DNA of 7,755 nucleotides, from IMG/VR virus record IMGVR_UViG_2734482544_000001. One strand, written 5' to 3'. The notes beneath the pieces are model-generated. The model did no database searches. It was not told the origin of the DNA and saw only the letters and a list, made by a program, of their open reading frames with translations. Below are positions 6,847-7,647 of the stretch, piece by piece. The position numbers were made by a program, and so were the translations under genes. Within the stretch, counting starts at the first letter, position 1. Every line of letters starts with the position of its first letter. The DNA comes from a virus (Duplodnaviria > Heunggongvirae > Uroviricota > Caudoviricetes).

Positions 6847-7215
6847 CTACCCCCCAAGGCATTGGATCCTGATGTACTCCTGAAGCATTCTCAATGCTGT
6901 CTGGTCGCTGATGATTCCGTCCCGGATACCGAGAACGTTTCGTCCAGCAACTGGAGAGAGTTCGACGGTGGCATCATTGCCCATGCCGGAGGCGCTGGAG
7001 GTTTCGGCTGAGGATGGCACAGGGCATTTTCCTTTGACGAGCACCCGACCACCATTATCAAGCTTGCGCCGAAGAGCATCATTTTCAGCTTTCGCATCAG
7101 CTAACTCCTTCGTGTATTTAGCATCGAGTGCATCAGCATCACGCTGGCGCTGCTGCATGTCAGTAATGGTTGCGTTCGCCAGCTTCAGTTCTCTTGCGTT
7201 TTTGTCGCGCTGCTC
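6847..7215 (-). CDS. Rz: Rz-like i-spanin, C-terminal 122 codons (5' end lost in the assembly gap)
   Basis: The translation [48 protein letters not shown] is almost identical to lambda Rz as I recall it. The fragment begins right at the gap edge, so roughly 35 N-terminal codons including the membrane anchor are missing. TAG stop at 6849-6847. Confidence 0.85.
6891..7097 (-). CDS. Rz1: Rz1-like o-spanin outer-membrane lipoprotein, embedded in a different frame within Rz
   Basis: 68-codon ORF lying entirely inside Rz in another frame. It has a lipoprotein signal with lipobox VVGC ([21 protein letters not shown]) followed by a Pro-rich stretch ([16 protein letters not shown]), closely resembling lambda Rz1 as I recall it. 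Confidence 0.8.
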
Positions 7216-7216
7216 T

Positions 7217-7515
7217 NNNNNNNNNNNNNNNNNNNNNNNNNNNNNNNNNNNNNNNNNNNNNNNNNNNNNNNNNNNNNNNNNNNNNNNNNNNNNNNNNNNN
7301 NNNNNNNNNNNNNNNNNNNNNNNNNNNNNNNNNNNNNNNNNNNNNNNNNNNNNNNNNNNNNNNNNNNNNNNNNNNNNNNNNNNNNNNNNNNNNNNNNNNN
7401 NNNNNNNNNNNNNNNNNNNNNNNNNNNNNNNNNNNNNNNNNNNNNNNNNNNNNNNNNNNNNNNNNNNNNNNNNNNNNNNNNNNNNNNNNNNNNNNNNNNN
7501 NNNNNNNNNNNNNNN
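7217..7515. other. Assembly gap (run of 299 N)
   Basis: Directly visible. It interrupts the lysis cassette between the endolysin N-terminus and the Rz C-terminus. The stated length is probably nominal. Confidence 0.95.
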
Positions 7516-7647
7516 ATCTTTGTATAGTATGTAGCTGACACCTTCCAGACCATCGTTACCACCTGGGCCAGTGATTAACACAGATGCTATAGCAACAGCC
7601 CCGCCACCAATAGCAACTGCAACAGCCTTGCGTAATGATGGCGACAT
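7516..7647 (-). CDS. SAR (signal-anchor-release) endolysin, N-terminal 44 codons (3' end lost in the assembly gap)
   Basis: The ATG at 7647-7645 has a strong Shine-Dalgarno (GAGAGGTG) about 5 nt upstream. The translation [44 protein letters not shown] has a Gly/Ala-rich weakly hydrophobic N-terminal segment and closely matches the N-terminus of phage 21 R21 lysozyme as I recall it. It is truncated by the gap at 7516. Confidence 0.75.

Follow-up and report, generated by a model that had tools for sequence, protein, structure and literature searches.

The question raised by this locus is whether a 266-codon open reading frame that runs straight across a block of N encodes one protein or only appears to do so. 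The frame lies in a stretch of 7,755 nt (hereafter the window, meaning the whole stretch of DNA that was analysed) from a Caudoviricetes record, IMG/VR IMGVR_UViG_2734482544_000001, and was returned by an ORF finder on the minus strand at 6847..7647. Its translation consists of 44 real residues, about 100 X and 122 real residues ending in IRIQCLGG, the X corresponding to an N-run of 299 nt that is the sole one in the window. The original prediction took the two real parts for the N-terminus of a SAR endolysin and the C-terminal part of an Rz protein and regarded the frame as a chimera of the two.

The endolysin side was identified by sequence comparison. In a PDB sequence search the 44 residues align over their whole length with residues 1-44 of the lysozyme of phage 21 (PDB 3HDE), with 39 of 44 identical (E = 3.8e-19), and equally with residues 1-44 of RrrD (PDB 4ZPU; 39/44 identical, E ~4e-19), which bears out their reading as the start of a SAR endolysin. 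The SAR segment itself covers residues 8-26, is weakly hydrophobic and Ala/Gly-rich, with 11 of its 19 residues being A, G, S or T, and aligns with the SAR segments of both structures. The catalytic triad of these lysozymes follows the motif E-X8-D-X5-T (PMC9239132). Both E35 and D44 are present in the window and the gap cuts the gene right after D44, so that T50 is hidden by the N-run and visible only in the closed chromosome carrying the locus L004, whose 165-aa endolysin is identical to the fragment at 44 of 44 positions. A Pfam search with the 44-aa fragment alone gave no match because the fragment is too short; the 165-aa endolysin of the related locus L001 matches PF00959 (Phage_lysozyme) at 9.4e-46. 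The full-length endolysin of L004 aligns with RrrD (4ZPU) over residues 1-165 with 10 differences (E = 2.9e-104).

On the other side of the gap, the 122 C-terminal residues match PF03245, "Bacteriophage Rz lysis protein", with E = 3.7e-28 and 98.7 bits, against a cut-off of 25.4 bits, over profile positions 8-125 of 126. They had been proposed to represent Rz from about residue 35 onward, and in closed relatives, whose Rz has 156 aa, they do correspond to residues 35-156, being identical to that part in L004. On both sides of the gap, matches at family level and of near identity rule out a chance resemblance. NCBIfam returned nothing further above its cut-offs. The N-terminal transmembrane segment of Rz thus falls into the gap; in L004 it reads MSRVTAIISALVICIIVRLSW and differs from that of L001 by C18R.

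Within the surviving part of Rz lies a complete second spanin gene, rz1, in the +1 frame. Counted from its first ATG it has 68 codons; the gene call in L003 starts at the ATG at 7082 instead, which gives 63, and 63-aa Rz1 proteins are called at the corresponding place in L003, L006 and L009. The predicted product matches PF06085 at 3.8e-21 over profile positions 1-41 of 41, the match beginning at Cys19, and it combines a lipobox (VVGC) containing this cysteine with a Pro-rich mature part and the +1-frame position inside Rz. Although intact in the window, the gene is unannotated in the RefSeq records L001 and L002, which show a "lysis protein" for Rz only; rz1 genes are commonly missed by gene callers (PMC6139136).

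How much DNA the N-run hides can be read from closed relatives. A megablast search with positions 6600..7755 as query matched complete E. coli genomes in two pieces, at 99.4-99.6% identity, the span on the record exceeding that on the query by 164 nt, and the flank-to-flank distance is 463 nt in four closed genomes (L001 and L002, both measured by local BLAST, L004 and L011). The most informative of these is L004, on the closed chromosome CP151357.1, which was reached by a look-up of the DedA protein encoded beside Rz. It matches the window at 100% identity to the left of the gap over 4971 nt, the whole overlap, and to its right over 240 nt, IS2 junction included; its gene order matches that of the window, and an IS2-type transposase gene lies directly beyond the endolysin gene. 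Where the window has 299 N, L004 has 463 nt (4972..5434), made up of endolysin codons 45-165 with the stop (366 nt) and Rz codons 1-34 (101 nt), minus the 4 nt of an ATGA overlap between the two genes. The full proteins are an intact endolysin of 165 aa and an Rz of 156 aa. These values agree closely with the earlier estimates of about 165 and 155 residues, of roughly 360 nt of endolysin and 100 nt of Rz missing, and of a true gap of at least 450 nt. With its 299 N, the record understates the gap by 164 nt; the figure of 463 nt for the window itself would carry over from a genome with identical flanks and not from the source isolate.

A broader sample gives the same picture. Among 60 evenly spaced records drawn from 4797 matching E. 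coli records, 34 gave two-piece matches, and the spacing was 463 nt in 33 and 460 nt in one. In 20 phage records it was 463 nt in 15 and 555 nt in 5, the latter presumably carrying a different endolysin region. A spacing of 299 nt was absent from all 34 E. coli matches and from the 20 phage records. This bears on the possibility that 299 nt is the true length, the gap having been sized exactly or masked without change of length, in which case the source genome would carry a 164-nt deletion relative to its relatives and encode a genuine in-frame chimera. In such a protein, the membrane-tethering SAR segment and the first two residues of the catalytic triad would be joined in frame to the coiled-coil, periplasmic part of Rz, and it would sit in a holin-less, defective prophage. 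In favour of this possibility, both frames are in register at exactly this length and the prophage is decaying anyway, its holin gene being interrupted by IS2 and its portal gene by nonsense codons. However, besides the missing spacing in the sampled genomes, the exact pattern of the two gap edges with a 299-nt spacer has no match in genome contigs, the genome whose flanks are 100% identical over 5.2 kb has 463 nt, and the agreement of frames is expected by chance in one case out of three. A real 299-nt spacer is therefore very improbable.

The reading that fits these observations, and that we hold to be almost certainly correct, is that of an ordinary lysis cassette in which 463 nt are replaced by 299 N and which encodes no fusion protein. 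The window would comprise the 3' part of the lysis cassette of a lambdoid prophage of the phage-21 type on the minus strand, with pinholin S, SAR endolysin R, and Rz with embedded Rz1, and a scaffold gap of estimated size, written as 299 N, would stand for the 463 nt from endolysin codon 45 to Rz codon 34. The translation of N into X, together with a wrong gap length that happens to put the two frames in register, would then suffice for a mechanical ORF finder to produce one frame of 266 codons.

The arithmetic of the frames can be followed in L004. There, the endolysin TGA overlaps the Rz ATG (ATGA), and the endolysin frame is the +1 frame of Rz, that is, the frame of Rz1; continuing past the stop in the endolysin frame gives MRKLKMML... 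With the 132 nt of the visible endolysin part and the hidden 463 nt, the distance is 595 nt and Rz is out of frame with the endolysin. In the window, the ORF stays open because N is translated as X and never as a stop, and it looks continuous because 132 + 299 = 431 nt brings the Rz frame onto that of the endolysin: the 164 nt by which 299 N fall short of 463 nt leave a remainder of 2 upon division by 3, which moves the endolysin frame onto the Rz frame. The original prediction had called this continuity meaningless because 299 is not a multiple of 3. Its conclusion stands, since the number of N is a mere estimate, whereas non-divisibility by 3 is not the reason. The 266-codon ORF is not a gene but an artefact created by the gap with its incorrect length, and no protein joining endolysin residues 1-44 to Rz residues 35-156 is encoded. 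The identities of the flanks and the 463 nt found between identical flanks in a closed genome thus uphold the view of a chimeric frame, and an annotation of a single protein would indeed be wrong here, as L004 encodes an endolysin and an Rz separately and in different frames.

The gap most likely arose here because the stretch is a multi-copy, near-identical repeat. The hidden 463 nt are present in 4846 of 5426 complete E. coli genomes, at a median of 2 places per genome and a maximum of 7, and the close relative FDAARGOS_943 has 6 places with this stretch, the copy most like L004 lying at another locus. Moreover, contigs with the neighbouring DedA gene are frequently short, the longest of them measuring only 5-10 kb in 2396 of 5113 index blocks. 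Multiple copies and contigs of this length fit a repeat that short reads could not span and that a scaffolder bridged with an estimated size, so that several near-identical copies among the lambdoid prophages of E. coli/Shigella would have been irresolvable for short-read assemblers. Odd gap numbers such as 299 are typical of an estimated size and not of a fixed placeholder.

Since the endolysin/Rz region is multi-copy in these genomes, a scaffolder could also have linked the wrong copies, and the Rz-side flank and the endolysin/IS2 flank would then come from two different prophage copies of the source genome. Against such a misjoin speak the contiguous flanks of L004, which match the window in order and orientation, are both 100% identical to it and share the IS2 junction, and also that this junction occurs as one contiguous match in no complete E. 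coli genome of the collection; the misjoin is thus highly unlikely. An additional insert hidden in the gap, for example another IS copy, that would make the real length well above 463 nt is less probable still. The lineage is rich in IS elements, related loci containing IS2, IS1, IS110-type and other transposases, and in L003 and L005-L010 the endolysin region has given way to IS insertions. Yet L004, the only locus with identical flanks and the IS2 junction, has the plain 463 nt, and the gap estimate of 299 speaks for a short span and not for one above 1 kb. A plain 463-nt stretch in an otherwise ordinary cassette remains the preferred explanation.

As a whole, the window represents the late-gene end of a lambdoid prophage, in which all genes but that of the DedA-family protein lie on the minus strand according to annotations taken from L001 and to Pfam (Table 1). 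For the 254-aa ORF, no significant Pfam or NCBIfam family was found, apart from faint N-terminal helix-turn-helix matches (E ~0.007-0.01). Placed between Rz and the terminase genes but on the other strand, the DedA-family gene resembles a prophage "moron"; its exact protein occurs in 5113 index blocks of the public collection.

Table 1. Features of the window (positions in nt of the 7,755-nt stretch).
Feature	Position	Strand	Basis and remarks
Cement protein	99..605	-	L001 annotation/Pfam
DUF2213 protein	609..1829	-	L001 annotation/Pfam
Head morphogenesis protein	1833..2615	-	L001 annotation/Pfam
Portal protein (DUF1073 / Phage_portal_3), 488 aa in relatives	2467..3933	-	L001 annotation/Pfam
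Large terminase	3933..5336	-	L001 annotation/Pfam
254-aa ORF that overlaps the large terminase gene at its start, where a small terminase subunit would be expected	5287..6051	-	ORF
DedA/VTT-domain gene, 170-aa membrane protein	6246..6758	+	PF09335, 9.3e-14
Lysis genes: Rz/Rz1, endolysin, last 23 nt of pinholin gene	6847 onwards	-	L001 annotation/Pfam
i-spanin Rz: last base of codon 34, codons 35-156 and stop; periplasmic coiled-coil part	6847..7216	-	PF03245, identity to L004
o-spanin Rz1, complete, inside Rz in the +1 frame	6891..7097	-	ORF and PF06085; untouched by the gap
N-run	7217..7515		Scaffold gap, 299 N, length too low; 463 nt in closed L004
SAR endolysin codons 1-44, phage-21/RrrD-type, GH24 lysozyme	7516..7647	-	Matches to PDB 3HDE/4ZPU and L004
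Phage-21-type (class II) pinholin gene, last 23 nt; all of the holin gene in the window	7647..7669	-	Homology to L011/L001 stops at 7669
IS2 (IS3 family) left end, first 86 nt, cut off by the end of the window	7670..7755	+	Identical at 86/86 nt to the terminus of the IS2 copy annotated in L001 (6199..6284)

At the upstream end of the cassette, the TAA stop of the pinholin gene shares 1 nt with the endolysin ATG, and in place of a complete gene of 68-71 aa the window retains only the stub that precedes IS2 at 7670. The target sequence CTTAC (7665..7669) is found as a 5-bp duplication on the far side of the element in L004, in keeping with an IS2 insertion, and the rest of the pinholin gene resumes past IS2 there. 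The IS2/holin junction, as an exact pattern, had no match in genome contigs and gave no contiguous match in complete E. coli genomes, rows listed as at least 80% covered being either two pieces distributed over more than 500 nt or of low identity; it was found only in CP151357.1. In relatives, a holin is annotated immediately upstream of rrrD, and that of L001 matches PF04971.

Apart from the interruption of the pinholin gene, comparison with L011 and L001 shows two nonsense codons, W59* (3758) and Q126* (3558), and the substitution A308V in the portal gene, and in the identical L004 no portal gene is called at this place. IS2 in the pinholin gene together with W59* and Q126* in the portal gene indicates that the prophage is defective, and by IS2 the endolysin and spanin genes are cut off from the holin and the late promoter. 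The part of the endolysin hidden in the window differs in L004 from RrrD and from L001 by D127Y and R136C; these two substitutions, like C18R in the Rz transmembrane segment, may be inactivating changes of a prophage in decay.

Related prophage copies in other genomes (L001, L003, L005-L010 and L012) have IS elements at other sites. IS2 lies within the large terminase gene in L001 (4965..6284), L003 and L006-L009, and IS elements stand in place of the endolysin region in L003 and L005-L010. The differing sites suggest that this prophage remnant is eroding independently in different lineages.

For annotation and assembly, the locus holds a caveat: a pipeline that translates over the N-run would submit a 266-aa "endolysin-Rz" protein that does not exist and would at the same time miss two real genes and the embedded rz1. 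The appropriate annotation would consist of two partial CDSs in place of one, for the 5' fragment of the endolysin and the 3' fragment of Rz, together with Rz1 on the minus strand at 6891..7082 (or ..7097) and a gap marked as being of unknown length. Its relevance is thus one of quality control only and its scientific interest is low. The cassette has near-identical counterparts in thousands of public genomes and a 100% identical one in a single closed chromosome; it is a textbook phage 21/DLP12 arrangement of pinholin, SAR endolysin and embedded Rz/Rz1 spanin and contains nothing new.

Compared with the known systems, the endolysin belongs with R21 of phage 21 (PDB 3HDE, 3HDF) and RrrD of DLP12 (PDB 4ZPU), both "true lysozyme" SAR endolysins of family GH24, with which the window shares the SAR segment and E35/D44. 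In contrast to these proteins, the window holds just 44 of 165 codons, and the substitutions specific to it include P41L; the full-length endolysin of L004 has the same length as RrrD, 165 aa. The counterpart of the phage 21 pinholin S21 (PF04971, class II holin) is found in L001, L002 and L011 as a PF04971 gene of 68-71 aa that immediately precedes the endolysin gene and overlaps it by 1 nt, whereas in the window and in L004 this gene is broken by IS2, 23 nt before its end. In the spanin of lambda, Rz1 lies wholly within Rz in the +1 frame (PMC6139136), and this embedded architecture of the two-component Rz/Rz1 spanins of lambda and phage 21 is also that of the window.
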